From the NCBI GenBank assembly GCA_951406725.2, contig OX597814.1, positions 8,494,001 through 8,558,000 of the forward strand: a stretch of 64,000 bases of DNA. Direction: 5' to 3'. This document shows positions 32,822 through 64,000 of the stretch, piece after piece. Every line of letters starts with the position of its first letter. Within the stretch, counting starts at the first letter, position 1. Both the position numbers and the translations under genes were made by a program. The notes under the pieces were generated by a model. It worked only from the letters and a program-made list of their open reading frames with translations, was not told where the DNA came from and did not search any database. This stretch comes from Octopus vulgaris (taxonomy: Eukaryota).

Positions 32822-32958
32822 AAACCACAACATCAAGCTCATCCATTCCTGGTCCAAGACAGGAACCATCCTCTGTGACACCCAGAACTAATGTGGCATC
32901 TGGAGTAAATGCTGGCATTAAAATAAACCTAATGATTGATTCAATTTCTAATGCATCT
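32822..32958 (+). CDS. Macro module copy 1, exon A (S/T/P linker + first strands)
   Basis: tttattttcag| ... TCT|gtgagt; phase 1 to 0; ETTTSSSSIPGPRQEPSSVTPRTNVASGVNAGIKINLMIDSISNAS. Confidence 0.85.
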
Positions 32959-33237
32959 GTGAGTAAATAGATTCATGTAACTTATTTATTTAATTGTTAT
33001 TTCATTTCCAAATGAGGAATCATTAAAGTTAATTAAAACATTTTCTCAATCTAACTCAAACATTTTATTTCCTTCACATCTGATATCTTGAGTATATCTT
33101 TTGCTAACTTTAACAACCTCAAACTTACTACAGCCATTCTGTAGAGCCTTTCTTAACAACAATATCAACTGCAACAATGTATCTCTCTTCTCTCCATGGA
33201 ATGTTCCTTAGTTGTTTACCATTAATTACTTTTGTAG

Positions 33238-33465
33238 GTTGATGTCATCGTTAACAACACCAATAAAGAACTCCAGCTTAACAATGGTTCTATCTCCAAA
33301 TTTATTCTCAATGCTGCTGGTTCAGAGATACAAGATGAATGTAACCAGGAATATCCTCAAGGTATTTCTACATCTACAATAGCCATCACTAAAGGATATA
33401 ACCTCAACTGTGAGAATGTATTTCATCTGGTATTACCTAAATGGAATGAAAATTCCTCTGATTCA
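33238..33465 (+). CDS. Macro module copy 1, exon B (macro domain core)
   Basis: tttgtag| ... TCA|gtaagt; 228 nt; VDVIVNNTNKELQLNNGSISKFILNAAGSEIQDECNQEYPQGISTSTIAITKGYNLNCENVFHLVLPKWNENSSDS, PARP14 macro2/3-like. Missed by the ORF track. Confidence 0.92.
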
Positions 33466-34074
33466 GTAAGTATCAATCAAATGATATTGATTTATTGAAG
33501 CAGTTAATGTTTGAAGAGAACCTTATGCATGTTGTGTGAGAATCATAAAGCAAATGTCAGCATCCTGTTTAATATTTGTTCTTCCAAGTTATCATTGGAA
33601 GGAAGCAGAAGATATCGATGAACAGGACACTTTTATATATAAATAGAAGGAAAAAAGCCTCATGGCCTAACAACAGTTATGTGACTGATAAATAAGACTA
33701 TATTAAAACATATTTCTGTGTTTTACTCTCTGTATTGGTGAGTTTTTCTCTGTCATGGCACGAGCACTAGAGAGGTTGTCATGTCCTCAACAACACTAAA
33801 GACTCCTCTTGGGTCTGCATTGACTCTCTTCATTCACCAACCATTTTACACGGTGGATTGGGTCTGTTTTATTGTAGCAGCATCATGAGTGAGGTTGCCT
33901 TGTCCCTTGCAGGACTAAAGAGTGATAGGAATGACAGATGTGTTTAGAAGTGGTAGGAGTGAGAGGAGTTGTGAGAGGAGAATATATTTATTACAACTTA
34001 ATGGTTTCTTCCTGTAATAAGAAAGTAATTCAATAAAATGTTCATTATCAATTGCTAAACACTTATTTTTTTAG

Positions 34075-34299
34075 ATTCTGGCAAACTTGACTCAAATAAT
34101 AACCATTTGTCTGGAAAAGGCTGAGAGAATGGGAGCAAAAAGCCTGGCATTTCCTATATTAGGGGCTGAAATGAAATACCCCATAGAAAAACTACCTGGA
34201 ATTATGTATGAAGCAGTGAAAAACTACTCAGATCGAAATTCAAGCTGGATCAAAGATGTTTACTTTGTTGTTTTACCTCAAGACACAGAAATAGTAAAG
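34075..34299 (+). CDS. Macro module copy 1, exon C (macro C-terminal half)
   Basis: ttttttag| ... AAG|gttggt; 225 nt; ILANLTQIITICLEKAERMGAKSLAFPILGAEMKYP...IKDVYFVV carries the SIAFP-type motif. Confidence 0.92.
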
Positions 34300-34332
34300 G
34301 TTGGTTGATGTTTTTGTTGGTTGTTGTTTTAT

Positions 34333-34900
34333 GATCATCATCATCATCATCATCATTATTTAACATCCATTGTCCAAACTGGCATGGGTTGAACTGTTTA
34401 ACCAGTGCTGGCAAACTGAGGGGTTGCACCAGGCTCCGGTCTAATTTGCCATGGTTTCTATGGCTGGATGCCTTTCCTAACACCAATCATTCTGAGAATG
34501 TAATGGGTGCTTCTTATGTGCCACTGGCATGGATGCCACTTACATGACACTGGCAACTGCCAGTTTGCCTCTATGAGGCCCAACGCTTGAAAGATGCTTT
34601 TTACATGCCACCAGCATAGGGGCTAGTCACTTATGTGACACTGACAATGGCTACAACTATGAATTCGCTTGGCTTGACGGCTCTTCTCAAGCATGGCATA
34701 TCACAAAAGGTCTCGGTCACTAGTCATCTGTGAGGCCCAATGTTTGAAGATTATGCTTCACATCTTGTCCCTTGTCTTTCTGGATCTTCCATTTCCACAG
34801 CTTCAATCCACAGGTACTTCTTCACACAGCTGTCCACATCCATACACATCACATGACCATACCAGCACAGTTGTCGCTCTTGCACACCACATCTGATGCT
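34333..34900 (-). mobile_element. RTE LINE 3' fragment
   Basis: (CAT)n tail plus the shared tail motifs and RTE C-terminal remnants. Confidence 0.65.
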
Positions 34901-36579
34901 TGTCCAACTTTTCAATCAATACATTTACACTCTGTCTTACATTTTTGGAAGTTACCAAAGGAAATATTCTGCAATAAATAAAGAAAATAGAAACAAAAAT
35001 ATGGAATCAGTTTTGTAAATTTATTTGTTGGTGTCTTAGAATTCTTCAGTTGGAATGTTGGAATCTTTGATGTTTCTCATGGCCCTGTCTTCCATACTTT
35101 TAGGTTAGCTTGGTTTTCTTCAACTCTTCCATTCCATGATTTAATTCTTTGTAACTTGATATGGATTCAGTGTAGCTACCTCCACCACCACCACTACCAC
35201 TACCTACCCACAACATCCTTCAACAATTCCATTTTGGTTACTGACCAACCAAAAATGTGTTAATGGCACCACCAGAACACTGATGGTTTTCTTTCATTTC
35301 TGTTCTTCAAAGTGGAACGCTTTGGAAACTCTTTCCACAATTCTTTCCATATTTCTTCCCACAGGAAACAATGGGGATTCTGTCAGTAATATAGAGGGGA
35401 GGATAGAGGGGTATGTCCAATAAGAGTATGAGGGGAGATGTTTAGAGATAGTGAGAGGACATTAGAGTGGCTGGGGGTGTGGTAGATATGTGAGGACATG
35501 GACAGTGTGCAGATAGGCGAGAGAGAGTGGAGGAGCCTACAGTGGGGTGGGGGAAAAGTTGGGTTGTGAGGGAGCTTGGTAGACAATAGAATTATGTGTG
35601 AGAGGTGGGTCATGTTTGTAAGGGACATGCCTATATGTATGGATGGTCACAATGTTACTTAGCTTATAAGATGAAATATAAAAAAAGCATAAATAAAATA
35701 TAAGAATGAAAGAATACAGAACAGAGTGGGTAATGTAGTCCTAGGTAGACTGCTTGTCTGATGGCCTCATCCTGTTCTTTGACTGACTTATTGTGTCCTA
35801 TATTTGCTCTGTCATGATTACCTGCCTCACAGAATACAACAACAACAACAACACGGGGAATACAACAAAAAGCTTTGTAGACAGTGAGCAGATGTGGTTA
35901 CCATTTGTCAGACAGGTTTTTCAACAGCTTGTTCAAACTGTGTCCTGGATTAAGCATAGACCAAGGCAGGGTACCTGCCACCTAGAGTATCTTCAGGTTC
36001 CCATAGGCCTCTGTCAGTTGGGCAATGTGGACAGTGGAAGTTCCACTCTAGCATTATATAGAGGATTACTGGCAGATAAGTACGACGTTCTTGAGGAGAC
36101 TCTGGACATCAATGAGAAGGATCTGTCCCAGAATGTTAGAATGTCCCTTTTACATTATATCACTTTCACATTATCTTCTTGCATTCCATACAGTCTTACA
36201 ATTTCCCCTTTCATTTTGGAGTACTTGGTCATTTTTTCAACCTCTTCTCTCACAACATTCATGTCATTTGGTATGGCTACATCAATGATCTGACTTATTC
36301 AAACTCCAAAGAATCCCTCTCAACACATGGCTATAATGCTTCCCCACTACTTCTGCTCATGATCAGAGATTCATATATCATCAGCCACTAAGAGACATGC
36401 TCAACTGGTTAAGGTCAAACAACTGTGGTATTGAGCAGAATATTTGCTGTAGCCCATCTTTTATACCAGGACAAAACAATGTACATGATAACACTTCCAA
36501 TCAGTTAAGATCATAAGCCATGAGAGCCACTGCTTGGTATTGCATTGTGGCACTGTATTACCATTATTATTATTATTCA

Positions 36580-39500
36580 TATTTTACCTTCATAACACAG
36601 TGTAGGTAAACTACACTGGAATATTTACTCATCTGTCAAGTCACAACAAGGACCTCAGACAGATAATACTTTCCTTAAGATGTGCGCTGTGCCCATTAAG
36701 GCTGCTTTTTTGCAAGACATCAATCTTGCATGGGATTTCCTGTTGCCTAAAGAAGTCTTGAAGTTTCAATGGGATTGAGCCCAACGCTCCGATCACCACT
36801 GGTATCGCTTTTACATTACCCTCTCGCATTCCATACAGTCTTACCATTTCCCCTTTCAATTTGGAGTACTTGGTAATTTTTTCAACCTCTTCTCTCACAA
36901 CATCCATGTCATTTGGTATGGCTACATCAATGATCTGACAGTATTTCTCTCTTTTATTCAATATGACAATATCCGGCCGACGGTGTTCAATTACACGATC
37001 CGTCTGAAAATCATAGTCCCAGAGAATCGTTACTTTTCCATCCTCCTGCATAACTTTTTTTGGTACAACTCATACCAGTTCTTTGTTACTTCATATTGGT
37101 ATTTATGGCATAAGGGCCAATGAAGATACTCACTCACTTTATCGTAACGGTGCTTGTATTCTTTTTGTGCAAGGCTCTCTCAGCCACTTCACCAAGTCAG
37201 TCACATTTTCCATACTCTTTCCATAGAGTCTGCATTTCTGAGTGTCAGAAGTTTTATAGATGTTATACTTAACTAAATTGGTAACAAGGCCTGGTCTTGT
37301 GCAGCAAGATCAGGTTTTCATTGGTATACTTCAAATCACCTCGCTCAAGCCATACTTACGATGCTGTATAATCCTTAAAGTCTTGTGTATTCCTTTCAAA
37401 CTGTCCATGCATTCTCATTTCAAGAAGGTCTTCTTTTCTATTCTCCTCGGCTCTTTGGTTAAACTCTTCCTTGCCCATCATTTCATCTGCATTTACCTCC
37501 ATATCTTTTGCAGCATATTGCAGCAGGTCTTCATTACAATTCATCAAATACTCAGCAATCGTTCTCCTTTCACTCCTTATACAATAGTCTATACTAATTA
37601 GTCCTCTGCCACCATTCTTCGTTTTCATGTACAGTCTGTTTACATTTGCTTTAGGTTGTAGCGCCCCATGCAGCGTCCTCAGCTTTCTCGCCCTTCTATC
37701 CAGTGTTGATATTTCCTCCTTAGTCCATTTGAGGATGGACACACTATATCTGACCACCACAACTGCTCAGATATTCATTGTAGTAATCAAAATTTTGGCA
37801 TTCAGATTGGATTTCAACACCATCTTCACCCTTTTTTGATACGCCTCACTGACCTTGACTTTCATTTCTCTGTGTAGAATGTCATCCAGCTCCAAAGTCC
37901 CTAAATATCTATACCCATTACCACCATCGGGTTCACCCATGGTCTCTCCTAATGGTAACTGCAATCCTCTGCCGGCTGCTTTCTTCCCACTTTTCATATT
38001 AAGTACTGAGCATTTGGTAATCTCAAATACCATACCGATGTTTCTACCACACTTCTGGACTGTTTTGGTTAAGAAATCTATCTGTTTTTCAGATTTCCCA
38101 AACAATTTCAGGTCATCCATAAACAGAAGATGGTTCAATGATGGGCCTTTCTTCCCACATTGGTAACCCCTCTTAACATTCCTAAGTGTCATTGTTATGG
38201 GAATGAGTGCAATTACAGAAAGTAACGCCTTGGAAGTTTCCCCTTTTGATATTAACTTCTCCAAGGAATACATTACTTGACTACAATTTGGTTTCCCACT
38301 CTTTCATGCTATGCATCAGAAAATTTGTGATGTTGTCAGCAACGCCAAACATCTGCAGGCATTCAACGATCCAAGAACGAGGCATCATATCATATGCCTT
38401 CTTAAAGTCAATCCAAGCCACAGACATGTTTGTATGCTGTTTTTTACAATGCCTCAGAACTGTTTTATCGATGACCAGGTGATCCTTGGTACCCTGAGAA
38501 CTCTTCTTACATCCTTTTTGTTCCCTTGGTAGTATTTCTTCCTGTGCTAGGAAGTGTATGTCTTTGCCACACACATTCCAGTGAGTATCTTCCAGATTAT
38601 GTTTAGGCATGCTAAGGGATGGTACTTTCCCTACAATATTCCCCTTTCTTCTCTCTTTTGTTACAAGTGTTCTCCTCCCAGTCACCATCTCCATGGGAAC
38701 TATACCTTTCTGGACACACTCATTCAATTTGGCTATTAGTCTTTCATGCACCACGTGGCATCTTTTCAGCCAGAAGCCATGAATCCCATCTAGTCTGGGG
38801 GCTTTCCAGTTAGGCACTTTACCCACTTGTTCTTCCACACCACCCATGCTTATGACAATATTCCTTTGTTTCTTTCTTCCTTGTAATTCTTTCTTGATAG
38901 TTCCTATCCTCATTTCATCCCTTTTATGCATCACATTGTTCCCCCATAATCTGCTCCAGAACTCCTTGGTTTGGTTTGCATCAGGAGCCACATTTTCTCC
39001 ATTGCCTCTTTCTGATGTTTGGAAGAATTGCTTCAGATTATTTTTGAACAATCTGTTCTCCTCAAACTGCTTATTTCTGTTCACAAATCTGTTGATCTTC
39101 TGGCTTTTTGCCATGATCCTCTGTTTTAATTATTCTATTATCAAACCCATTCTTCCGTATTTCATATTTCTTCTCTAATTTTTCTCAGTCGGTTTTATTC
39201 TCATTTTTCCAGTTTCCTCTTAACCATTGCTTAATTTTTCCTAGATCTTGCCTTGTCAGCATTATGTTCCTTTCAATGTGTTGTTTCTACCATTGTTCTT
39301 TTGCTCCACCACTTTTTGTTCTCTTAAGTTGTAATTTCTCCTCAACAAGTAGTGCAATAGCTCAGAGAAGATTCCTAGTTTGCGTCATGTCCTCCGTCTT
39401 GATGTACAGTATGACAGTATTTACCTTTTGTGTTACTTTATTTATCATTCTTCCATCTACCTTTCTCATGTTCATGGGAATGTTTTCTTCTGGAGCATTG

Positions 39501-40070
39501 ATCAGGTTGGTGAGTCGTCTTTGAATTTCAAGCAATTCATTATCTAGTTGGTTCATTTCCCCTGCGTGTGCACCCACCACAGCGTCAGGGTTTACTCTAC
39601 AACATTCCCATTCCTCATCCTTAACAGCTCCATCACCATTCTCCTGTTCCTCCTGTCTACTCTTCTCTCTGATTTCAATTCCTACATCTTTCAACTCTGA
39701 CCATCCTTTGAAGCCTATCTGCTGGGTCTCTCAAACTCTCACTTATCTGAGATATTTTTACTCCAGTTAAGTAACTCTTCCTCCTAATTACTCTCACGGG
39801 TTTCATTAGTTTATTTTCTGACTTTGGACGCATGTCCTTTTCCATCCAAAATTTCAAGGTCCATCACCCTACTCTGTGTCTTCTTTGCAGCTTTGCTCTT
39901 TCATGACATTCAATAAGTGTAAAATATTCTTCCTTCGTCCACTTATGTCTGTTTTCATGCACACCGTGTATATGATCTGTTGTGATCATCCGAGGCCAGA
40001 TCACTGCCCTTGATGCTAGTGGTTTCACACATGCCGGGCGGGAAACCTTCACCATAATTGGCTATAGCTT
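36580..40070 (-). mobile_element. Near full-length degenerate R4/Dong-like RLE non-LTR retrotransposon
   Basis: Frameshifted ORF pieces: RHKWTKEEY (N-terminus), AWIDFKKAYD and HLLFMDDLKL (RT), ILWDYDFQTD..RRPDIV..IIDVAIP..PVVIGALG (RLE). Confidence 0.9.
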
Positions 40071-40513
40071 CATTCTCACTTTTAATTCTTTCTTTGATGT
40101 GTTGCATCATGATTTCATGAGTCATTCATGGGTTACCTATGTGAGTTGTTATTGGGATCCCATCTCTCTCTTCCTCTATTTGTATATACACATACACATG
40201 TATGTATATACACATATATATATAAATAATGTGCTTGCATTGTATTGCCTCCATAATCACTGTGATTATCAGTACCCTCCCATCGTTCTACCCATAGCAT
40301 TTAAAATTATCAATTGTCCCAGTATATTGCAGAAGATCTTCATCACTATTTATCGAATATTCAGCAAGCGTTCTCCTTTCACTCCTTATACAATAGTCTA
40401 TACTAATTAGACCTCTGCCACCATTCTTTCTTTCCATATACAGTTTATTTATGCTTGCAGTTAACACTTATTAATATTATTGTTGTTGTTGTTGTTGTTA
40501 TTATTATTATTAA

Positions 40514-40561
<48 letters not shown>

Positions 40562-40562
<1 letters not shown>

Positions 40563-41905: not shown

Positions 41906-41909
41906 ACTA

Positions 41910-41959
<50 letters not shown>

Positions 41960-42312: not shown

Positions 42313-42349
42313 CCTTTTGTTGTTGTTGCTTCATGATAACTTTATTTCA

Positions 42350-44299: not shown

Positions 44300-44354
44300 A
44301 AATTTGATGAATATCTCCTAAATAAACCAGTAAATGAAGGAGTTCATTCAAAAG
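44300..44354 (+). CDS. Macro module copy 1, exon D (55 nt, final helix/linker)
   Basis: tttttacag|AAATTTGATGAATAT...TCAAAAG|gtaaac; KFDEYLLNKPVNEGVHSK. Its phase (0 to 1) bridges exon C (ends phase 0) and exon A copy 2 (starts phase 1). Confidence 0.75.
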
Positions 44355-44413: not shown

Positions 44414-44480
44414 ATTATTATTACTAATATTATTGTTATTATTATTATTATTATTATCATTATTATTATTATTATTATTA

Positions 44481-44671: not shown

Positions 44672-47600
44672 TAGTTTTATTTTTATAGTGTGCTTTCACT
44701 TCACTACCGAGCGCAGCTCTGTGTGCCTTGGGTATGTGCTGTGGTTTGGTTTGATGGTCTTTACGTAAGATGTATGTATGATGCGCAGTAGTGCAATTTA
44801 CTGTACGTTATATGTGTTTGCAAGTTCTGGTGTTTTTGTTGTGCATTTGTATGAATAGAATCTGATTAGAATCGAAGGGCCTTAGAGTCAACCTAGCTAA
44901 AACCAAACTCCTAATAAGTAGGAAGGCAGGCAAACTACAAATCCCTTCAAGTAGATGGCCCTGCTCGATCTATAGAACAGGCGTAGGTAGAAACTCTATA
45001 AGATGTACCTAGTGTAAGCTATGGACACAAGAGGTGCAGCAATATCGAAGGAAGGCTAACTGGGAGGATAGCTTTTGTATGTGGCAGATACTCAGGAGCT
45101 ATAAATAACATTGAAATTGTGCAGAGAACAACTTCTGCCACATTCCAGAGAGAAAAACTAGAAGTAGTTGATAGCTTCCGTTACCTAGGTGACCAAGTCA
45201 GTAGCGGAGGAGGGTGTGCTGAAAGGGTAGCTGCTAGAATAAGAATAGCCTGGCCAAAGTTCAGAGAGCTCTTACCTCTGCTGGTGACAAAGTGTCACAC
45301 CCCAGCAGTTGAGGGAACCTGTGGAAGAGGTAGACCCAGGAAGACCTGGGATGAGGTTGTGAAGCAAGACCTTCGAATATTGGGCGTAACCAAGGCAATG
45401 ACTAGTGACCGGGACCTCTGGAAATATGCTGTGCTTAAGAAGACTTGGCAAGCGCAAGTGAGACCATAACCTCGTGGCCTATGCTAGGGGTGTAACAAGT
45501 CCACTTATGCGTGCCTTTCCTTCATTGGACACTAAACTCTGCTTGCGACGACCAGTTGAGGCAAGTGAAATCGAAATCAAATTCGATGACTGGCATCCGT
45601 TGCTAGTGGAGTGCTAAGAGCACCATATGAGTGAGATTGTTGCCAGAACAACAAGCTGGCCTCCGTGCTGATTGCATGTTAAAAGCACCATTCGATTGTG
45701 ATCGTTACCTGCGTCACCTTACTAGCACTTGTGCTGGTGGTACATGAAAAAAAAAAACATTAGAGCGAGGTTGTTGCCAGTGCTGCTGGACTGGCTCCTG
45801 TGCAGGTGGCACATGAAAAGCACCATTTGAGCATGGCCATTGCCAGTACCACCAAACTGGGCCTCATGCCGGCGGCATGTAAAAGCACCCACTACACTCT
45901 TGGAGTGGTTGGTGTTAGGAAGGGCATCCAGCTGTAGAAATTCTGCCAGTTCAGATTGGAGTCTGGTTCGCCAGACCTCAGTCAAATTGTCCAACCCTTG
46001 CTTGCATGGAAAGCGGACGTTACATGATGATGATGATGGTGATTGTGTGAATATTTTTTTATCATGCCTAATGCGCCTACTATGATAGGAATTGTTACTG
46101 TTTTTAGATTCCACATTCAATTTACCTCTATTTCCAGCTTTTTATATTTTGACAGTTTCTCCATTTCTTTTAGAGACACGTTGTCATCTGCTGGTATTGA
46201 TACGTCAATTAGAAAGCATTTTTTTTCTTCATGATCTCTGACAACTATACCTCGCTTGTTAGCCTTAATTTCTCTATCTGTGTGTTTTGGCATATCCCAG
46301 AGTATAGCTGCATTCTCGTTTTCTGTGACCTTTTCTGGTGTGTGCCTATACCATCTTTTTTCTGTTGGTATTCCATAGTGTTGGCAGAGCTTCCAGTATA
46401 TGTAGGTCCCAACTCTGTCATGTCTGTGAATATATTCCTTCTCAGTCAGGACTGGGCAGCCAGAGATAATATGATTTATTGTTTCTTGTCCATCTCCACA
46501 TATTCTGCAGTTACTTGTTATATTTCTTTTCATTACATGTTTTTGGTAATTTCTGGTGGGGAGGCTTTGGTCTTGTGCTGCAATTAAAAATCCTTCAGTC
46601 TCTGCTTTCAGTCCTGAGCTTCTCAACCATTGCTGGGAATTTTCTCTGTCTATTTCTTTTGCATTTAGTTTAGTCCAGTATTTGCTATGAAGGGGTTTTT
46701 CTTGCCATCGTTTTATCATGATCCGTTGCTGTTCTATTTTTAGTTTGGATTTCATTTGTTTTATAGCTTTTGTTGTTTCTTCATCTTCTTCTTCTTCTTC
46801 ATGTTTATTAGGTGGTATGATTTCTTGTTTGTATTTGTCAGCTTCCTTAAATACTGAGAACAGTTTTTTGTTTTGCTCGTGTTTTGCCGCTATCTGGATC
46901 AGTTTTCCTTCCTTCTGAAGTAGATATTTTTGCAGTCCTATGGTGGTTATTTTATAGTAGTTTTCCAGCTGTATAAGGCCTCTACCACCTTCTATACGTT
47001 GTATATATAGCCTTTCTATGTCAGATTTAGGGTGATGCATCCTAGATCCTGTCATTATTTTTCTTGTTTTCCTATCTATTTTGTTCAGTTCATTTAGAGT
47101 CCAGTTAAGGGTATTGTAGCTGTAACTTATAACTGGGACAGCTAAAGTGTTGATACCTATTATCTTGTTTTTAGCATTGAGCTCTGTGTTTAGTATTGAT
47201 CTAACTCGTCTATAATATTCTTTTTTTATTTTCTCTTTCATTTGTGTGTGTTGTGTCTTATCTAGTTCATGGATTCCTAAATATTTGTAAGTTTGGCTTT
47301 GGTCTAATTCTCTTATTTCATTGGCTTTATCTAGTGTGATGTTGCTACTCTTAACTAGTTTTCCTCTTTTCAAGGTTACTTTGGCGCATATTTCTTATCC
47401 AAATTTCATATCTATTTCTTTGGTAAATCCATGTACTGTCTGTAGTAGTGTTTCCAGCTGTTTATCATTTGTAGCATATAATTTTAGGTCATCCACATAT
47501 AAAAGGTGGCTGATCGTTTTGCCGTAACATTTGTATCTGCATCCAGTTCTATTTAGCATATCAGATAGAGGTGTAAGTGCTAAGCAGAAAAGGAGTGGAG

Positions 47601-49700
47601 AGAGCGTGTCTCCCTGGAATATTCCTCTTCTAAAGGGGATGGCTTTGGTTTTCACGAGTCCCTCTTGTTTGTAGCTGTAGCACTGTCTGCCATTTATTCA
47701 TAGAGTGTCTTATGTATTTTATAATTATTGGTGCTACCTTGTTCATGGCTAGTGTTTCGAGGATCCACGTGCGGAGAATGCTATTAAAAGCCTTTCGGTA
47801 GTCGATCGAGGCCATACCGAGGCCTTTCTTCTTTCTGCGGCTGTCTTCAGTCATGGCTTTATTGATCATTAATTGATCTTTACAGCCATATGAGCCCTTG
47901 CAGCATCACTTCTGCTTTTCTGGAAACAGGTTGTTTTGTTCCAGATGCTTGTTCAATCTCTGCGATATTACTGCAGTAAAGGTTTTTGTACATTATAGGC
48001 AGACAGGTTATAGGTCCGTAGTCTTGTGGTTTTGCCGTGTCATCAGATTTGAGAATTAAGATAGTTTTCCCTTCCGTGAGCCATTCAGACATTGTCTGTG
48101 GCTCTGCCAGTATGTTGTTAAAGTTTTCAGCCAGCTTTCTGTGTATTCCTGTCAGATATTTTAACCAGAAGTTGGGGATCTTGTCATGCCCAGGTGCCTT
48201 CATGTTGGTTAGTCTTTGCAGTGCCTGGGTGACCTCTTCAGTTGTTATAGGGGTCCAGAGTTGCTCAGTTGTTTTAATAGTCCTTTTCTGAGGTTGTTCA
48301 TTCACCGACAATATTTCTTTCCAAAATTCTTCCACTTCTTCTTGCCAAGTTCTTGGTAGAACCTTTTGGGGTTGGAGTTGAACTGTTTGTTTTGTTCAAA
48401 GAAACATTGGCGTTTCTCATACCGGCGGATCCTTTGTGCTTTGGCAAGGATATCTTGCTTCAGCTTTTCTTTTATCTCAGGTAAATCTTTTTCTGTGATG
48501 TTATATTTGTGGAGTATTTTTGTTTTCTTTTTGTTGCTCAGTAGCGTTGATTGTTGACTGATTTCATTAAGAATCGACAGATCTTTTCTCATTTAAAAAA
48601 TTTTTTGGGATGTTATTTATCCACAGGGTGGTGGTGGTACTCCTGTTTGGATGGGTTTGAGGGAGTATCCAGCTTCTTTTGTGGCTGCAGTGGCTGCTGC
48701 GTATACTAAGTCATTTAGCTCAGTGATATAGCTTTTTGTTTCAGTGGCTATTAGTTCCGTGACGGCTAAGTTTATACTATTTATAATTGATGTTGTTTTT
48801 TTGTCTATTTTGATGTTTGGGAGGTATGACCGATGGTCCATTTTGAGATCTGTGTTTTTCAGTTCTTTGATTAGTCTACTTTTTATAGTATCATAATCAT
48901 TAGGCTCCCCTTCGTTGTTTCCAGGTTTTAGATTTGTGTCGCTTTCTTTCTCATTCATATGTTTGTCTGTCGTGTTTTGGCTCGCTGCTTGTTGTGCATT
49001 ATTATGCATCCTTACGGTCTGGGTTTGTTGTTTTTTGTTTGCATCATTTTTGTTGGGAATGTTACGTTTGTCTTCATGTTTTACTATCTCAGTGTTTATA
49101 TTATTTGGCATTGTTGTGTGGCTTCTATTTACATTTTCCTGGTGTATTTTTTCTTTTAAATGTTGTATTTCTATTTCTGATATTTTTTTTGCATTGAGAA
49201 TATATCTTCGTATGTTAGCTAGTTTATTAGGGTTCATTGCTGTATCCAAGTCTTTATTTAGGTTATTTTTCTTCCAGATTTTATATGTATATGTTGTGTT
49301 TTCATTCTTTGGGTAGAGTACTGCTGTAGGATTGAAATGTATTCCTCACATGTCCATTTATGCCTTTTTGGTTTTATTTGCGGAACATGAGGAACAACGT
49401 CTGGCCCATTATTTTGACAGTCGTCATTTTTGTAGGGTACCGGTCCGTTCATTTCTATTGTCACATTGTTTTGCCCGTGTAGTTTTACGTACTTTTTGTG
49501 TAAAAAGTTTAAAGTACACACTTTCTGATTGTTATTCCTGGGTTGAATAATACCAGTATTATTTAATTTATTTGTAATTTTTTTATACATGGTGTTTGGC
49601 GCCGGAGACGACCTGGTGTTGATAGATCGTAATGTATCAAGCATGTTTACATGTGCTGTGCAAGCAATGGAGATGATATCCTGTTAAAATACATAATTTC
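44670..49700 (-). mobile_element. Near full-length R4/Dong-like retrotransposon split by an RTE insertion
   Basis: ORFs 49258-49644 (KRHKWT), 47395-47655 (GIFQGDTLSPLLF, YVDDLK) and 46117-47373 (CRICG..ETINHIISGC, ILWD, LIDVSIP). The C-terminus resumes at 44670-44857. Confidence 0.9.
44858..46042 (+). mobile_element. 5'-truncated, internally deleted RTE LINE with target-site duplication
   Basis: ORF 45119-45469 (SFRYLGD..RGRPRKTW), (GAT)n tail, flanked by ttgtatgaata (44847-44857) and ttgtgtgaata (46043-46053). Confidence 0.85.
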
Positions 49701-51399: not shown

Positions 51400-51870
51400 T
51401 CCTCCAGGGAATGATGTTAATAATGCACAAACTTATTTCTCCTCATGCATTTTGAGTATTGAAAGTGTAACAGATTTAGAAGATTTTTTGAGAATATGCA
51501 CTTTCTCAAGTCTGTTTCAAAATTGCAGCCATTTGATGCAAAATGTTTGGTAAGTTCTGTCCAACTACTGTTATTGTGCCTGACATCATATCTGTGCCCA
51601 TTAAGTCTTTTGTTTAATTGTTCTTTTGTGCAACGAACATAAACCAAGTTGTGTTTCGTGCATTCTGCTGCATACACCAAATGGGAATCTCTACATGTCC
51701 CACCTTCTGTATAAATCATAACATTTCTGATATGATACCTGATGGAATTCACTTGATTCATGTTGTTGTACAATGAACAGGTCTTACCTCTTTTGCAGCT
51801 GTTTTTCAGGGTACAGCATGCAGGTACCCCAATGTTAGTTTCCTTGGAGTCAGAAGTAGAGGTTAATAAT
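51400..51870 (-). mobile_element. Penelope-like element GIY-YIG endonuclease relic
   Basis: TCRDSHLVYAAECTKHNLVYVRCTKEQLNKRLNGHRYD fits the PLE pattern C..NxxY...C..(C/H)...YVG.T...L..R...H. Confidence 0.7.
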
Positions 51871-52760
51871 TCTTTCAGTTCCAGTTAATCATTAAAGAAA
51901 TTTCATAATCTATTGTATTGTGTCTGCTAAAATTATGCATGAAATTGTTTTGTCTTTTTTTGCCAATCTTAGCTATTTCATTTGCTATTTCCTTTAATCA
52001 TAATTCACTGTAACTGTGTTTGTCATGATAATGTACAAAGGTTTCTAGTAATCCTGTGTCAGTACAAATCCATTTTATCCTCAACAACTGGGATTTTGGA
52101 TTTGATCGAATTATGTGATGTGGATGGACAGAGTGGTGGTGGATGTAAATGTAGGCTTGCAAAGCAACTCTGTCACTATTCTGCCTCCAGAAAACTTAAC
52201 TTTTGTGTCCAAATAATCAATGCTAGTTTTTGAAAAACTAGATGTAAATTTTTATAGAAATGCAAAAATTCAATTATAGTATCCTGCAATCCTTCCCAAG
52301 CAAAATTACATCATCAGGGTACTGTAACCAGAGTATTGGTTGATGGCCATGTAAGAATTTGAATGTCTTCAGTAACTCTGTTTAAAATTTTGTTGTGAAG
52401 ACATTTGCGAAATTAGCTGCCATGGGAGTATCCATGGGGCAACTCCTCATCAGGTGGTAAAATGTTTGCCCAAACTTCGTTGTGTTACTTTGTAACACAA
52501 ACCTCAATAATCTACAGAGCATATTTTATGAAATACTTTCGTTTGACCATTTTCTCAGGCATTTGTGTATTTTAGGGAGACTGTAAAATACAAGTGTTCT
52601 TTTTGATCATAAAAATGACAATGGAGTCAGAAAACCCTATGATTATGGAGAATAAAAATGATGATGATCGAATCTAGCATAACTGGATCTAAAAGGATCC
52701 CAATATCATTGAACCAATAAAACATCTATTGCAATCACATTATGCTCTATATATTGCCTA

Positions 52761-52801
<41 letters not shown>

Positions 52802-53258: not shown

Positions 53259-53289
53259 TCGTCATCATCATCATCATCATCATCATCAT

Positions 53290-53512
53290 CAACATTACGG
53301 CAGTGACCTGGCAGAATTGTTAGCATCTTGGGGAAAGTGCTCTCTGGCATTTCGTCTGTCTTTATGTTCTGAGTTCAAATTCCACTGAGGTCAACTTCAC
53401 CCCTCATCCTATTGGGATCGAAAAAATTTAGTACCAGTGACACACTGGGGTCAATGTAATTGACTTATTCCATTCCCCCAAATTTCTAGACTTCTGCCAA
53501 AATTTGTAATCG
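53290..53512 (+). mobile_element. SINE whose 3' half is homologous to the 115-bp satellite unit
   Basis: agtaccagtgacacactggggtcaatgtaattgactta..aattt..tgccaaaatttg aligns with the satellite unit. Confidence 0.7.
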
Positions 53513-54714: not shown

Positions 54715-56500
54715 ACGATCCATCTGAAAATCATAGTCCCAGAGTATCGTTACTTTTCCATCCTCCTGCATAACTTTTTTGGTACAACTCATACCAGTTC
54801 TTTGTTACTTCATATTGGTATTTATGGCATAAGGGCCAATGAAGATACTCACTCACTTTATCGTAACGGTGCTTGTATTCTTTTTGTGCAAGGCTCTCTC
54901 AGCCACTTCACCAAGTCAGTCACATTTTCCATACTCTTTCCATAGAGTCTGCATTTCTGAGTGTCAGAAGTTTTATAGATGTTATACTTAACTAAATTGG
55001 TAACAAGGCCTGGTCTTGTGCAGCAAGATCAGGTTTTCATTTGTATACTTCAAATCACCTCGCTCAAGCCATACTTACGATGCTGTATAATCCTTAAAGT
55101 CTTGTGTATTCCTTTCAAACTGTCCATGCATTCTCATTTCAAGAAGGTCTTCTTTTCTATTCTCCTCGGCTCTTTGGTTAAACTCTTCCTTGCCCATCAT
55201 TTCAGCTGCATTTACCTCCATATCTTTCGCGGCATATTGCTGCAGGTCTTCATTACAATTCATCAAATACTCAGCAATCATTCTCCTTTCACTCCTTATA
55301 CAATAGTCTATACTAATTAGTCCTCTGCCACCATTCTTCGTTTTCATGTACAGTCTGTTTACATTTGCTTTAGGTTGTAGCGCCCCATGCAGCGTCCTCA
55401 GCTTTCTCGCCCTTCTATCCAGTGTTGATATTTCCTCCTTAGTCCATTTGAGGATGGACGCACTATATCTGACCACCACAACTGCTCAGATATTCATTGT
55501 AGTAATCAAAATTTTGGCATTCAGATTGGATTTCAACACCATCTTCACCCTTTTTTGATACGCCTCACTGACCTTGACTTTCATTTCTCTGTGTAGAATG
55601 TCATCCAGCTCCAAAGTCCCTAAATATCTATACCCATTACCACCATCGGGTTCACCCATGGTCTCTCCTAATGGTAACTGCAATCCTCTGCCGGCTGCTT
55701 TCTTCCCACTTTTCATATTAAGTACTGAGCATTTGGTAATCTCAAATACCATACCGATGTTTCTACCACACTTCTGGACTGTTTTGGTTAAGAAATCTAT
55801 CTGTTTTTCAGATTTCCCAAACAATTTCAGGTCATCCATAAACTGAAGATGGTTCAATGATGGGCCTTTCTTCCCACATTGGTAACCCATCTTAACATTC
55901 CTAAGTGTCATTGTTATGGGAATGAGTGCAATTACAGAAAGTAACGCCTTGGAAGTTTCCCCTTTTAATATTAACTTCTCCAAGGAATACATTACTTGAC
56001 TACAATTTGGTTTCCCACTCTTTCATGCTATGCATCAGAAAATTTGTGATGTTGTCAGCAACGCCAAACATCTGCAGGCATTCAACGATCCAAGAACGAG
56101 GCATCATATCATATGCCTTCTTAAAGTCAATCCAAGCCACAGACATGTTTGTATGCTGTTTTTTACAATGCCTCAGAACTGTTTTATCGATGACCAGGTG
56201 ATCCTTGGTACCCTGAGAACTCTTCTTACATCCTTTTTGTTCCCTTGGTAGTATTTCTTCCTGTGCTAGGAAAGTGTATGTCTTTGCCACACACATTCCA
56301 GTGAGTATCTTCCAGATTATGTTTAGGCATGCTAAGGGATGGTACTTTCCCTACAATATTCCCCTTTCTTCTCTCTTTTGTTACAAGTGTTCTCCTCCCA
56401 GTCACCATCCCCATACCTTTCGGGATATGCTCATTCAATTGGGCTGCTAGTCTTTCATTCACTGTGTGGCATCTCTTCAACCAGAAGCCATGAATCCCCT
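54715..56500 (-). mobile_element. R4-like segment almost identical to 36995-38790
   Basis: The same broken ORFs recur at an offset of about 17,719 nt (37356/55075, 37767/55486). Confidence 0.9.
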
Positions 56501-56529
56501 CTTTAAGTTATCATATTATTATTATTCAT

Positions 56530-59400
56530 ATAAACTCAACAGGTTAGACTGTTGGAAAAGAAAAGAATCCTCATTTTGGGCTACAACGAGTGGCCTTACA
56601 TGCCAAGAACCCTCCTAAGTACAATAGTTCTCCCTAATAATACTATTTTGTGCAGCTGTACTAAACTGGGTTTATGCCTATTGTATCACTTTCCTCTTTA
56701 TTTGCCTACCCTACATTGGGAATCTGCTTGTTTTTTTTCTATTTGAATTTTATTCAATTAGTTCTTAATGCTTGATCTTGAGCAGCTACTGACAAACTTT
56801 CTGTCTCCTTCTTGAGATTTCCTTTCTGCTAGCATAACCATTTTGCACTACTACTACTTGCTCCAGCTCTCTCTGAGAATCTACCATGCAAAGCCTTCTC
56901 CTGCCACTCAGATAATTTCTATTCTTTTTTTCTGGTTTTAAACTTCGTTTTGATGTTTTGCTTTGCCTTTGTCATGCTGTGACTCGAGCAGCTCTTAGTA
57001 AATTTTCTTCCTTATTACCTACAGATGAGTGTATATCTACTCTAGCTAAATCCACACTGTCTACAACTGATATTAACCTCCTTCATTTCTAGTTAGGTAC
57101 AATCTTGCTACTCCTGCCCTTGGGTGGAATCCTCCATTCATATTGAATTCCTTCCTACTTCTTCTGCTTAGCTTTACTAATTCAGTTTTTGTCCAATCTA
57201 CAAAAGCTGCCGAGTATCTAAGTAAGGATACTGCCCAAGTATTTACAGCCTTCACTAGATTCAGACCAGTTAGCTTTGACTTCATTAACTTCCTCTCACC
57301 CTTCTGATGTACTCCTTTTCAATTTTCCTTTTCATTTCTATAGTTAGTTCCCTGTCAGATTCTAATACTCTTAGATACTTATAACACTCTCCTCCTTTCA
57401 ATGATTTCAATGTCTGGCCAATTGGTAATTGGATGCCTTCGCTGTTGACTACCTGTCCCTTTTCATCATGACTAATATTGCACCCTTATCTATGCCAAAT
57501 TCCATGCCTGTATCTTTGCTCAAGAATCTTACATTTTTTCATTCTTACTAAAAAGCTTCTGATCATCCATGTAGAGCAAATGGTTAATTTTTCCCTTACT
57601 ATTTCTGAACTCATATCTGGCCTCTTTCCTTCCTTAATACTTAACTGGGGAGGGATCAAACATAAGACAAAATATTAAGGGGTACAACGACTCCCTCTGG
57701 AAAATTCCTCTTTTGATATTAACTTTTCCTAAGAGTGTGTCACCTGAGCAGAGATCTACTTTCCATTCCTTCATGCTGAAGCTAATTAATTCTCTTTTGT
57801 TGTCTGCAATTACTGAATATACTCAAACATCCACTTAGCCATGAGTGTGGGATCATGTCATAGGCTTTCTTATAATCTATCCATGCTATTCTTAGATTTT
57901 TCTTTCTAGCTTTTACTTCGTTTAGAAATGCTTTGTCTCTATATAATGGATCATGTGTTCCTCTAGACTTCTTCCTGCAACCTTTTTGTTCTTCTGGCAA
58001 TAAACTCTGGTTGTGAAGGTGCTTGTAAATGCTTTCTGAAAGCATTCCTGTTAACAGCTTCCGCACTAATGGTAAACAAGTGATTGGTCTATAATTGCTA
58101 GCTGTATTACCCTTGCTCTTATCCTTCATAATGAGTATTGTCCTCCTTCTTGTCGTCCAATCTGGTATTATTCATCCATTAAGGCAATCCTCAAATTATT
58201 CCCTCAGCAGCCCATGAATTTCTTTAATTAGGACCCTTCGACTAAATCTGGTCCTGAGCCCTTCCAATTTGGCATTTTTCCTAACACTTTATTCAATGAT
58301 TCACTAGTTAGTATTAGATTTGGCTGCCTCTCAGTCAAATCTAGTTTTTCCCTCACTTCTTTTAATCATACTGCATCTCGATTATGATTGACTGACTCAT
58401 CCTAAATATTATTCCAGAACTTTCTCACTTCTTCTGCATTAGGTTTCTCATCTTCAGTACTTCCTTCTCCATTAATTATCTGGTTATAAAATTTCCTCAG
58501 ATCTGTCTTAAATATTCTATTCTGTTGATACTGATCTATTCTTTTCTGATATCTGGAAAGCTTGCCTGCTACTGCTATGACACACGGTTTCAACTTTTCT
58601 ATTACTGCCCCAAATCCTTTCTCTTTGACTAAGTACCTTTTCTCAAGGAAAGATTTGCATCTTGTGTTTCCTATCTTGTTCATTTTCCAGGCTTCTATTC
58701 TACTCAGATCTTGTCTTAAGGTCTTCACTTTATTTTGTAGTCTCCTTTTCCACATTTGCTCTTTTCTAGTCTTTCCCTGTGAGATATCTAATCTTCTGGT
58801 CACTACAACCCTTTCTGCATAGATCAGTAAATTTTTGTCTCCTATATATTTAGTATCCATCCTGCTGATAACAGAGTCTACTTTCCTAGTCATTTCTAGC
58901 AGCTTCTGTCTGTTGGTGCCTTTTAATATTGCTAATCTTTTTCTTACTTCTTCACTCATTACTTCCTGTAACTTATCTAAAACCTTCTGATCTTTCTCAC
59001 TTAAATCACTTAAGTCAATGGTGCCAGTTGTCCCTTCCTTATTGGTAGAACTATTGTTATTTTTCCCTTTAGGTTCTTCTTTGCTTTGAGATGTATCTCT
59101 TATCTTGCTGTTTCTACTTCCCGTTGCCTGATCTTGTGTTCTTTTGTTGGGTATCGGCTTTCTATGACACATGTTTTTGTTCATATTGTTGTGTATTTAC
59201 AGTATGACTTTATTCTTGTATGTTTTTCCATTTCCTAGCATTTATCATTATCTGTCTGCCTTTCTTTTTCTTTTTTCTTTGTTGGCTTAGTTATGGGTTC
59301 CTTCTTTGCAGCATTTACCTTTTTTCACTGAACCCTGCCGATAGTTGATGTGTTGATGTTTCTTTTACAGTTATAATTATTTTTGATGTATCTGTGAGAA
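56530..59400 (-). mobile_element. Degenerate R4/Dong-like retrotransposon (another subfamily)
   Basis: ORFs 58402-59184, 57782-58129 (NYRPITCL, AWIDYKKAYD) and 57073-57285. Confidence 0.85.
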
Positions 59401-59442
59401 ACTAAGAAGAAATAGGAATGTGCATATACATATAGAGGTCTT

Positions 59443-59465
59443 GTCTCTCTCTCTCTCTCTATTTA

Positions 59466-59518
<53 letters not shown>
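59443..59518. repeat. (CT)n(AT)n microsatellite
   Basis: Seen directly in the sequence. Confidence 0.9.
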
Positions 59519-59521
<3 letters not shown>

Positions 59522-59834
59522 TGTATAATGTAATTAAAATCTTAAATTTTACTCACAGGTTTGCAGTTTTATGCACATGCTGTAGCAGTGTTTTTGGGGG
59601 AGCTATACTTTTGTATATATATATATGCTCCATATAAGCAAAATCTGTCTGTTTCCTGTTATGGTCCCATTATGACCTAGTTTTCTTTCATTGATTTTAT
59701 GCATTTTTAATTCCTCCTTCATGATGGTTTCAGTTTTAAGGAATCTTCCTGGTAGCTTGCTGTCACACATCCATGCTGTTTGCTATTCACTGCGGTCTGT
59801 TTCCATTTTATTGTTATTATTATTATCTCTTTAT

Positions 59835-60980
59835 CACAGGTTTTGTTGGAACTCCTAGAGTCTTGCATACATAGCAGGCTTACTACCTGCGACCTACGGT
59901 ACCATGCTATCCATTCTTTTCCTGATTATCCTGGCCATGCCACGGAGGCAAACCTTTTGTAAACATTTCTACTGGGCACTCTATTCCAATTTCCTTTATA
60001 TTTTCCTTGATGCCTTCCAAAAACGCCCCCAAGGACCCAATAACAATTGGTACTACCTTCACTTCCATCATTCCCATAGCCATGCTCTGATGATTATATA
60101 TATCTACCTTTTTTTACCTTCGTCCTTGATTATTCATAGGTCAAAGGGACATGCAACATTAACTATGTAGCACATGTGGTGCATCATGTCCACCACCACT
60201 GGGCCCAGTCCTTTTTTTATGCTTTAGTACCTGATCTATTTGGATTGAGAGGTCCCAGAAGATTTTACAAGTCTTCAACTCCCCCACTCTCTGAAGCTTA
60301 TACTCATCCCAAGTCTTGCTTCTCTCTAACCCCCACTTTTCATACAGTTTCCAATGTGGCACTTTCATTAATTATCATGTTGCCGCAATTTGTAGTGGCA
60401 CAATTTGGGCAAGTCTAGGGCATTCATTCATGATGTGCATAATGGTTTTGACCACTCTGTTACAGATGCGGCACAGCAAAGACACTTGCTCATTCCTAAG
60501 GTTCACCCTTTAATTCATGGCCAAAGTTTGGCCTTGCACTGCCAGTATGGTGCTGCTCTCGGCCTCTTTTTTTCAGTGTTCCTTTCTTCAGTCAATCCCA
60601 TTTAGGTTTTCCTGCAACTTCTGTTGTGGTTACATGCAAATCATTATGTGGTCCCTTCTTCACGTCCCTTTTGTACTTCTTTCATTGTTTTCCCTTTTTT
60701 CTCTCTGCTCTCAATACTCCCTCATTCCTAGCTGCCACTAGCAAGGTTTCCTTACTTTCGGCTAGGTATCTCGTCCCTTTTCCTCTCTTTGCTCTCATCG
60801 TGTCTAGGTGATCTGTGTCTGCACATGGATGATGGCTTCCATGCATCATCGTTATGAGCTTTCTTGCCTTCCTCTCCAACTCCTACTCTCTCCACTTCAG
60901 AATTCCAGCATATTGCCAAGTTCATTGCCAGAGTTATGTTTCTAGCATTTAGCTTTGAAACCAATATTTTTCTCACTCAC
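59835..60980 (-). mobile_element. R4-like 3' fragment
   Basis: KVPHWKLYEKWGL..KIFWDLSIQ; RKLITMMHGSHHP; related to 1545-2130 and 3020-3515. Confidence 0.7.
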
Positions 60981-63350
60981 CACATGCTGCCACAGCTAAG
61001 ACCACAGCCAGACATATTGAATTAGGGAAAATAAATTGTGCCTCTATAAAAGGCACTAACACCTCTGTGAACATGGCTTGGCCAATCAGATCAGCTGATG
61101 TATAACCAAGGGCAATGGAATCTTCCCATCAAATAGTCTGGTCAAATGGTTTTCAGAAACCATGTTGGGCATTATTAAAACTGCATTTTTAAACAGAATG
61201 AGCTCTGATACTACACAGATGTTCTCACTTTTCTTTTTCTGCTTAGAACAACCTAAAGTGCTTCTCAAAGCTGTGTCAGTCAGTTTTGTGAGAAGACATT
61301 TTCATTTTTTTCTGTTTAAATATTTTCCCAGTAATTATGAACTGTCTTTGTATTAATATTGAGCATATTATACAGTGAAAACTTGTATTTATTTCCGTTC
61401 AGTATCATTTGAATGTTACTTCAGCAAATAGAAGAACATGTGGAAATATGTGGGCATGACTAAAAGGTCCACTCAGAACCATATATAACAATCCCAAGAC
61501 CTCCTTTAAGGTCTATGAGAGAAAAATGCCACATACATGGCTACGCATGTATGATTGCCGAAGGAAAGTAATCTTTACTTCAATGGTAGCAGAAGGTGAA
61601 GTCTGTGCCTTGCCAAAAAGAGAACTTATATTTAAGAACTCTCACCACCCAGATGCTTAATTCAAACCCAAATTCCACTTTGCTGGCAGTTACTCCTCAC
61701 TCAGAGATTTTGGACAAGTGGCATAACCAATGATGGAATCCTCCTCTCTAATTGTCTCTTGCAATTAGAGATGTGGCACTTGCTGTCAGAAACCCATTGC
61801 CCTACTTCCATACTGGCCACTCTGATGAGCACAGTGTTAGATGATATCCTGTGCAAAACTGATTTGTAAGAATGGCTGAAATGGATTTATAATACTGTAT
61901 AGTTTTGATGGTAAATTACCTCCTCTATTAACAAATGTACGAATGCCTGTTTTCCTAGTTGAGGGTGTCTTACACTTATTTCTATATCATCATCATCATT
62001 ATTTAATGTCCATCAGTTTGACAAGATCTGGTAATCTCTAGATCTGTGTTAGGTTCCACACTCAGCTGGCTGGCTGAGTGCTGCTGGCTGGCTGAGTGCG
62101 GCTGGCTGAGTGTGGATGGCTGGCTGCCCTTCAAAATGCCTATCATTTTACAGTGTGGAGTGAAAGCTGCTTTTCTCATGGCACCAGCACTGGTGAGGTC
62201 ACTAAGTATCTTGCAAAACAAAGCAAAGAATGGAAAAGGATAAAAACCCCCAATGGAATTGGGGGGAGGGTGGCTTGTTGCCAGGGGTAGAAAGTCTAAA
62301 GTTTGCCAAAGGGTCAAGCACAGTTGTCTGGATATAGAGGGATTCATGGCCTCCTTATATTTATGCAAGGGTGCATGACAGTATCTAGAAGGGAGAAAGA
62401 TGGTGGTAATAGGGTGCAAGAGCATAGTCCCAAGTTACAAGAAGGGGAGTAGAAGGGAGACTGTGGATGAGGAAAGAAGGAATGGGAGGGTAATGGCATC
62501 AGAGTGTGAGATGAGAATGGCAGAGGTTAGAGATGGGGCTTGAGGTGGTTGTAGGAAGTGAGGAACAATGGTTTGAGGTGGAGTTGAGAGACTGACGGGG
62601 CTCGGAAAGGAGGAGGTGACAAGAAGTAGCATAGGAAGGGTGGAGAGCAGCAGAACCATCAATCTGTTGATAGATGAGGAGGAAGAGAGATGATGACCAG
62701 GATCTGACAGCAGAGGGAAAGCAAAAATGATGAACTGTGAAAGAGATGGGAGTCAGAGATACATGGGGGTGGCTGTAGTGAGTGGGGCCAGAAAACTGGA
62801 GGGAGTTTTAGCAATGGCTGTGAGAGGGTGTTGAGAATGATTGCAGATAGGATAAGTGTTCAACAGGAAACCTGGCAGAGTAAGGTGTAGCTAAGAGGGG
62901 TGGGTGGGAAAGATTAGGGAAGGGACAGAAAGGGATGATCGATGGAAGGGTGTATGGACAGAGATGATGATGCAAGTGAGGCGACTGGTATTAACGAAAG
63001 GGTATGGTCGGTATTGAATGCTCTCAAATGGTTACAGCAGTAAAGTAGGACCATAGTTAGAAGAGTATAATAGAGGGATGGGTGTTAGGAAGATGAGATG
63101 TGGTGAAGGGGATGCTTCACAGGGACAGATGTGGGTGTAGGGCCCAGCATGGACAGTTTTTGGACATGACTTTTGCTGTGACAAATGTGTCTTTATATAT
63201 CATTTTGTTCAACTTGGACCTGGATGGAATATGGACATTATATCATCATGGGGGGGGGGGGGTAATGATGATGTTGGTATATATATATATATATATGTGT
63301 GTGTATACCTATACACACACATACACACACTGATATTTGTTTATTTTCAG

Positions 63351-63466
63351 AAACCACAACATCAAAACAGGAATCATCCTCCATGGCACCAAGAACTAAT
63401 GTGGCATTGACAAAGAATCGTGGCATCAAAATACAACTAATGATTGATTCAATTTCTAATGCATCT
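63351..63466 (+). CDS. Macro module copy 2, exon A
   Basis: tttattttcag| ... TCT|gtgagt; ETTTSKQESSSMAPRTNVALTKNRGIKIQLMIDSISNAS; in-frame 21-nt deletion relative to copy 1. Confidence 0.85.
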
Positions 63467-63747
63467 GTGAGTAAATAGATTCACTTAACATATTTATATT
63501 TAATTGTTATTTCATTTCCAAATGAGGAATCATTACAGTTAATTAAAACATTTTCTCAATCTAACTCAAACATTTTATTTCCTTCACATCTGATATCTTG
63601 AGTATATCTTTTGCTAACTTTAACAACCTCAAACTTACTACAGCCATTCTGTAGAGCCTTTCTTAACAACAATATCAACTGCAACAATGTATCTCTCTTC
63701 TCTCCATGGACTGTTCCTTAGTTGTTTACCATTAATTACTTTTGTAG

Positions 63748-63975
63748 GTTGATGTCATCGTTAACAGCACCAATGAACGGCTCCAGCTTAACAAGGGTTC
63801 TATTTCCAATTCTATTCTCAATGCTGCTGGTTCACAGATACAATATGAATGTAACCAGAGATATCCTCAAGGTATTTCTACATCTAAAATAGCCATCACT
63901 AAAGGATATAACCTCAAATGTAAGAATGTATTTCATCTGGTATTACCTCTCTGGGATGAAAATTCCTCTGATTTA
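63748..63975 (+). CDS. Macro module copy 2, exon B
   Basis: tttgtag| ... TTA|gtaagt; 228 nt; VDVIVNSTNERLQLNKGSISNSILNAAGSQIQYECNQRYPQGISTSKIAITKGYNLKCKNVFHLVLPLWDENSSDL. Confidence 0.92.
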
Positions 63976-64000
63976 GTAAGTATCAATCATATGATATTGA

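Follow-up and report, generated by a model that had tools for sequence, protein, structure and literature searches.

The window analysed here, 64,000 nucleotides (nt) of Octopus vulgaris (assembly GCA_951406725.2, contig OX597814.1, positions 8,494,001 to 8,558,000), is the middle part of an octopus PARP14-like gene that carries a macro domain in a four-exon block beginning and ending in phase 1. It holds three traces of this block: one complete copy, the first part of another, and what is left of a third, which we call A0. On balance, we favour the reading that the gene encodes a mono-ADP-ribosyltransferase in which non-hydrolytic reader domains are stacked and an eraser is lacking, that its symmetric exon plan lets the number and sequence of these readers change in frame, and that the protein has a probable role in innate immunity. 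An earlier interpretation made from the letters alone (hereafter the sequence-only reading) had proposed a PARP14-like gene, which an RRM exon, macro2-type domains and annotated Octopus relatives bear out; it had overlooked both A0 and the damage to the 5′ half of the gene.

The whole block (copy 1) lies on the forward strand, as do all exons of this gene described here. It consists of exon A1 (32822-32958; 137 nt, phase 1 to 0), which encodes a linker and the first macro strand, exon B1 (33238-33465; 228 nt, phase 0 to 0) with the N-terminal half of the macro domain including loop 1, exon C1 (34075-34299; 225 nt, phase 0 to 0) with the C-terminal half and a shortened loop-2 variant, and exon D1 (44300-44354; 55 nt, phase 0 to 1) with the last macro helix and a linker. 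Copy 2 is represented in the window by exons A and B only, namely A2 (63351-63466; 116 nt, phase 1 to 0), seven codons shorter than A1, and B2 (63748-63975; 228 nt, phase 0 to 0). All six exons have AG/GT borders, and every module splice border in the window is intact; the splices themselves are predictions from exon borders and annotated relatives. Exons A1 to D1 sum to 645 nt or 215 codons, a multiple of three with phase 1 at both ends, and the phase series 1-0-0-0-1 described in the sequence-only reading was thereby recovered. Joined in the order A1-B1-C1-D1-A2-B2, the exons give 329 codons in a single, stop-free frame. Pfam Macro matched B1 (E 7.7e-12), B2 (E 5.9e-13) and, weakly, C1 (E 0.039), and the window contains one full and one half macro domain, where the Octopus sinensis protein P0013 (annotated proteins are given by P numbers) has two. 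The cassette in the window is real and goes beyond chance. Exons C2 and D2 and the PARP exons are expected 3′ of the window.

Exon B1 as a query gave 44 proteins, of which 38 are named Octopus proteins, one is a like-sequence record and five are distant single-macro proteins; one full-length member as a query added seven Octopus proteins, giving 45 named Octopus proteins in total. Identical domains and vertebrate-like hits were left out, as were seven alternative-isoform proteins in the recombination, entropy and loop counts. All Octopus relatives are predicted gene models, some of them partial, so that module counts are minima. In an IQ-TREE phylogeny of 55 domains, all 10 sampled modules formed one clade (100/100), which fell inside macro2, with support (93/92) short of the starred threshold, and apart from macro1 (100/99) and macro3 (100/99), in agreement with the macro2-like origin assumed earlier. 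By mean identity, each of the 60 distinct modules classed as macro2 and each of the 11 other Octopus domains as macro1. Against solved single domains, a single module from Octopus bimaculoides matched 3q71 best (E 3.1e-22), with 3q6z at E 3.8e-10 and 4abk at E 5.5e-10. We take 3q71 to be PARP14 macro2 and 3q6z to be PARP14 macro1, the macro1, macro2 and macro3 labels of the entries drawing in part on PMC10221186 and bioRxiv 10.64898/2026.08.12.744356.

Passages of two sources tie hydrolysis to a glycine-rich loop 1 together with an aromatic residue in loop 2 (PMC10221186; bioRxiv 10.64898/2026.08.12.744356). The loop-2 aromatic was found in none of the 60 modules (leucine in 45, methionine in 15), compared with 10 of 11 Octopus macro1 domains, and the last glycine of loop 1 was likewise absent from all 60 (serine in 39, alanine in 20, phenylalanine in one) and present in 10 of 11 macro1 domains; the loop-1 asparagine is kept in 58/60. 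By this residue pattern, the modules are predicted non-hydrolytic readers. In PARP-bearing proteins, the short loop-2 variant occurred in 8/18 internal modules versus 1/17 last modules (nominal p 0.018, for modules that are non-independent), as if the enzyme-adjacent module were the one kept intact. A structure predicted for one module (P0028, from a 9-row alignment) was uninformative, with a mean predicted local distance difference test score (pLDDT) of 36.7.

At its 3′ end, the closest annotated gene is P0013. The module part as a whole is a patchwork of best matches: A1 is nearest to P0012 (43/45 residues identical; 38/45 for P0013), B1 to P0022 (72/76; 69/76 for P0013), and the stretch from C1 to B2 to P0013, with 74/75 identical residues in C1, 18/18 in D1 (equally in P0045), 37/38 in A2 (next-best other protein 26/38) and 76/76 in B2, which thus equals the last module of P0013. 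The in-frame join from D to A that had been predicted is also found in P0013 as the D1-A2 junction, with one residue differing, and 15 of the 45 named Octopus proteins contain the D-to-A junction word, 32 times in all. P0013 further has the short A2 and a 4-residue deletion in macro1 that the window gene carries in an upstream exon (see below) and that was found in 1/45 named Octopus proteins, namely P0013. Its layout is two modules followed directly by a PARP domain, without a WWE-like segment. The catalytic domain matches Pfam PARP at E 1.8e-15 and PARP14/15 structures at E about 1e-32. By this alignment, the His, Tyr and Ile of P0013 fall on the His-Tyr-Leu triad positions of PARP14/15. Leucine in place of glutamate in the triad is given, in a passage of one source, as a mark of a mono-transferase (PMC13224862). 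Between 44354 and 63351, tblastn found no RRM, big-exon, N-terminal, WWE-like or PARP match. Since no gene start or PARP end intervenes between D1 and A2, and given the two-module layout of P0013, the window gene most likely has copy 2 as its second and final module, with the array ending soon after the window. A longer array, which the sequence-only reading had envisaged as continuing past the window with more modules, was rejected on the layout of P0013.

Full modules per annotated relative range from one to five (five in P0001 and P0045) and module-dropping isoforms are annotated, which upholds, at the level of the family, the variable module number that had been proposed. PARP domains clustered at 99% gave 11 clusters in O. 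sinensis (17 proteins) and seven in O. vulgaris (7 proteins). A single chromosome-size sequence is listed by 19/27 O. sinensis and 15/16 O. vulgaris proteins, and these shared sequences suggest a tandem gene cluster; family members on small contigs may be haplotype duplicates. A WWE-like segment was present in 8 of 24 PARP-bearing Octopus proteins. Modules within one Octopus protein are 71-94% identical, and a PHI-like test (55 modules, 5000 permutations) gave 0.88 versus 1.09 ± 0.03 (p 2e-4), a signal that modules may exchange pieces, unless it is caused by chimeric gene models; fused gene models do occur in the family (P0029, P0046). One O. sinensis gene has five annotated isoforms that combine five B and five C exons differently: P0004 drops a module at D-to-A, P0005 drops one at A-to-B, P0007 joins B4 to the last C, P0006 has another C after B1, and P0002 skips C (B-to-D). 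A module is also dropped in P0051 relative to P0014, with a jump from B to C, and in P0025 relative to P0011. Besides, modules of the form A-B-D, without exon C, are annotated in P0016, P0022, P0029 and P0002 and leave half a macro domain in frame. It is likely that the family can add, drop and mix reader domains with the frame intact. Among more distant proteins, P0149 and P0223 are about 54-60% identical to Octopus modules; P0149 has two modules that are 91% alike, which suggests that the duplication habit reaches a related lineage. A PARP14-like protein of O. vulgaris was detected in skin mucus in one study (PMC11431876).

Upstream of the cassette, the window gene has an RRM exon, termed R (1243-1476, phase 1 to 1), which matches RRM_PARP14_1 (E 6.4e-05) and RRM_PARP14_3 (E 1.5e-04) in Pfam, both under the curated cut-off, and shares 64-72 of 77 residues with six annotated Octopus proteins. 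A big exon (23020-24490; 1471 nt, 490 codons, ending in phase 1) encodes the PARP14-like middle region and the first part of macro1, the latter with the 4-residue deletion. The intron between the two contains a 115-bp satellite (10755-23016; 12.3 kb, 106.6 copies, 98% matches) that ends flush with the big exon, and the native acceptor and about eight codons of this exon are missing where the satellite ends; splicing R to the AG at 23020 produces a frameshift. The frame is kept when R joins A1, either directly or by way of A0, and when the big exon joins A1. By tblastn, the second-half exon of macro1 is absent from the window, as is any exon for WWE-like, PARP or N-terminal pieces. The A0 remnant (32600-32729) derives from the exon A of a third module and shares 37/42 residues with its counterparts in other Octopus modules. 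Its end is fused by deletion to sequence upstream of A1 that is homologous to the intron upstream of A2, and A0 would stay in frame if spliced from a possible phase-1 donor after 32761. We read A0 as the trace of a deleted module.

In the mechanism that we favour, the macro2 domain resides in a four-exon block running from phase 1 to phase 1, and this block has been duplicated and deleted, probably by unequal crossing-over and gene conversion within the expanded gene family. The window gene would end like P0013, with two blocks and then a PARP domain with a His-Tyr-Ile triad and no WWE, and its modules would bind ADP-ribosylated targets without hydrolysing them. Because R, the big exon, the second half of macro1 and the block are all of phase 1-1, and exons B and C of phase 0-0, in-register losses by deletion or splicing would keep the frame, and the window copy would still be readable from R to A0 or A1 despite the lost acceptor of the big exon. 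With more readers and no eraser, the mark would tend to accumulate and the enzyme to stay on the targets that bear it. An immune role would be carried over, by analogy, from vertebrate macroPARPs, which passages of two sources describe as interferon-induced and under positive selection (PMC10221186; bioRxiv 10.64898/2026.04.23.720386). The sampled Octopus family has dropped macro3, and often macro1 and WWE too, and multiplies one reader domain by means of a frame-preserving cassette. It offers a natural series for studying tandem macro readers on a mono-ADP-ribosyltransferase, with zero or one eraser, one to five readers and two loop-2 variants, and it is a concrete candidate for cephalopod innate immunity. 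What tempers the surprise is that these proteins had been annotated before and that other molluscs sporadically show similar duplications.

Several points weigh against this interpretation. Loop 2 of module 1 in the window has glutamate for glycine and a one-residue gap in the phosphate-binding loop, and this change may weaken binding. The big exon is about 69% identical to P0013 over its full length, so that only the 3′ match indicates how the window gene would end downstream. Reads from modules so nearly identical may be mapped to the wrong one, which would inflate both the annotated isoforms and the recombination signal, and we found no immune data for the Octopus PARP14-like family. The signals of selection on the modules are mixed, with pN (the proportion of nonsynonymous differences) above pS (that of synonymous differences) in exon B, a ratio near 1 over exons A and B, and a weak enrichment in the loops. 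Finally, the big exon lacks a usable native acceptor, and the window copy may be dead.

That the window copy is in fact a decaying pseudogene of a birth-and-death family, its module turnover being neutral and merely tolerated by phase symmetry, seems unlikely to us, though it retains some weight. It would fit the loss of the acceptor and about eight codons at the satellite edge, a macro1 broken twice, and the A0 remnant. Yet the nine exon pieces of the window gene, about 950 codons, contain neither a stop nor a frameshift, the module borders are intact, B2 is identical to an annotated protein, and R joins A1 in frame, an R-to-A join that P0036 shows as well. The comparison of the two copies, which align over 765 columns at 88.5% (32742-33490 versus 63257-64000), speaks to both sides. 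Their A-B intron is identical at 274/279 positions (98%), while exons B1 and B2 share 207/228 bases and 61/76 residues; the claim that these are recent copies therefore applies only partly, the exon-B protein being 80% identical. Base differences number 21/228 in exon B versus 5/279 in the intron (p 1.8e-4). Of the 16 changed codons in exon B, 15 alter the residue, and none of 29 fourfold sites but 15 of 76 residues differ, which is at odds with neutral decay; purifying selection at a dN/dS of 0.25 or lower is rejected for this exon (p 3e-4). With pN 0.104 and pS 0.051, the synonymous share of exon B alone is compatible with neutrality (binomial p 0.30), and over exons A and B (pN 0.126, pS 0.092) pN/pS is about 1.4 and indistinguishable from 1, as a pseudogene would have it. 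The contrast between exon and intron suggests positive selection on exon B. As a firm claim this was rejected: exon A (pN 0.177) has a pS of 0.174 next to the same 98%-identical intron, and conversion of the intron is hence a live alternative explanation.

A bolder extension of the reader model, which we consider tentative and rather unlikely, is a somatically diversified reader repertoire, in which in-register B-to-C splicing across modules builds hybrid macro domains. This splicing would add to the variety that comes from gene conversion, from diversifying selection around the pocket rim and from a set of at least a dozen genes with one to five modules each. As exon B holds loop 1 and exon C loop 2, B-to-C joins across modules would make hybrid pockets. 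Variability of the pocket loops across modules gave p 0.48 by raw entropy and a marginal p 0.03 once corrected for the canonical macro2 baseline, and pocket-loop positions make up 4 of the 12 most variable columns (p 0.08). If true, the hybrid-domain idea would mean a combinatorial family of intracellular ADP-ribose sensors in an animal without adaptive immunity.

It is improbable that faulty assembly, by a misjoin at the 12-kb satellite or by collapsed paralogs, produced the damaged 5′ half and the patchwork. The break does coincide exactly with the end of a 98%-homogeneous array, and the 5′ and the 3′ part resemble different annotated genes, R and the final third of the big exon being nearest to O. 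vulgaris P0049 (72/77, 112/115 and 44/45). However, the macro1 deletion is common to the big exon and P0013 and thus ties the big exon to the cassette, relatives from two species likewise show a direct join of the big exon to exon A (3 of 11 such junctions), and an artefact of this kind would affect the 5′ half only and leave the cassette untouched.

Highly improbable is the possibility, raised by the sequence-only reading itself, that copy 2 is a separate neighbouring paralog unspliced to D1. In its favour, the family is large, probably tandem and prone to fused gene models, and the D1-A2 intron is 19 kb long, but this intron holds none of the exons that a second gene start or a PARP end would bring, its junction recurs in P0013, and without A2 copy 1 would lack a 3′ end for 19 kb.

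Stacked readers on a mono-ADP-ribosyltransferase, the arrangement we favour, can be compared with several known systems. Metazoan PARP14 (RRM/KH, macro1-2-3, WWE, mono-ADP-ribosyltransferase) resembles the window gene in its RRM exon, macro1 start and macro2-type domains, and resembles P0013 in the PARP14/15-like catalytic domain with His, Tyr and a hydrophobic residue. Canonical PARP14 has a macro3, whereas none was seen among 71 distinct full Octopus macro domains; a limpet macro3 search returned no cephalopod among 93 hits, a weak negative from a word-limited search. The three domains of canonical vertebrate PARP14 are 21-32% identical (six proteins), far from the values within Octopus proteins; macro1 is hydrolase-competent in canonical PARP14 and cut in the window gene, with the second half absent and a deletion in the first; and the WWE that precedes PARP in canonical PARP14 has no counterpart in P0013. 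In the published view, as given in part of one source, an ancestral three-macro PARP14 has been kept for more than 700 million years, and PARP9 and PARP15 are partial duplicates (PMC10221186). The annotated Octopus 'PARP14-like' entries (NCBI/UniRef; P0013, P0001, P0002, P0045) have the same A-B-C-D module, P0013 being an ortholog or allele at the 3′ end; the window is identical to none of these and differs by the A0 remnant, the lost acceptor and a 5′ part nearer to P0049. Mammalian PARP15 is, in passages of the same source, alike in its predicted combination of reader macro domains and an active mono-ADP-ribosyltransferase without a hydrolase domain, and differs in being mammal-only and composed of macro2 and macro3 (PMC10221186). 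The Octopus gene repeats macro2 and lacks macro3, and the likeness would thus be convergent.

Recent within-gene macro duplicates such as those in Octopus are also present in Babylonia P0065 (90%), Littorina P0077 (72%) and Potamilus P0161 (74%), but these are scattered single cases in the sample, whereas the whole sampled Octopus family is rebuilt on one module. Among the best 150 representatives, 19 have four or more macro stretches, and 5 of 17 examined have a pair at least 70% identical. Among other macro arrays (P0199, P0212, P0155, P0156) are a run of five macro1-like domains, up to 71% alike, and pairs of macro2 domains that are 85-94% alike. The Octopus unit is akin to class 1-1 modules, the label for symmetric exon-shuffling modules, and differs from them as a four-exon, intracellular nucleotide-binding domain in tandem duplicate. 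Phase symmetry is described in part of one source as a signature of frame-preserving module exchange (PMC3632108). Clustered PARP14-like duplicates with one to three macro domains per protein are reported from lancelet and sponge in passages of two further sources (PMC4245714; PMC13224862), and we found no paper on an octopus PARP14-like expansion in the openly licensed literature.

The remainder of the window is rich in repeats. Two 1.8-kb pieces of a reverse-transcriptase element (36995-38791 and 54715-56502, the latter an internal fragment) flank D1 in direct orientation and are 97.9% identical; D1 would be lost or doubled if the two recombined. The D1-A2 intron contains decayed retrotransposon frames of the long interspersed nuclear element (LINE) type at 46117-49345 and 57782-59196 (reverse strand), with a zf-RVT match at 46117-47391, and the LINE pieces between 36000 and 59500 are mostly antisense to the PARP14-like gene. 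A 155-codon frame on the reverse strand (51417-51884) has no Pfam match at E 0.001 and looks like a remnant of a GIY-YIG (Penelope-type) endonuclease. A Mariner-type transposase fragment lies at 31372-31860 (Pfam HTH_48, E 4.5e-20), and the satellite unit is similar to a portion of a dispersed repeat that occurs at 53421-53509, 25942-25989 and 8394-8437. Finally, positions 3513-5443 are occupied by a degenerate, CT-rich minisatellite of 1.9 kb with periods of 22, 44 and 66.

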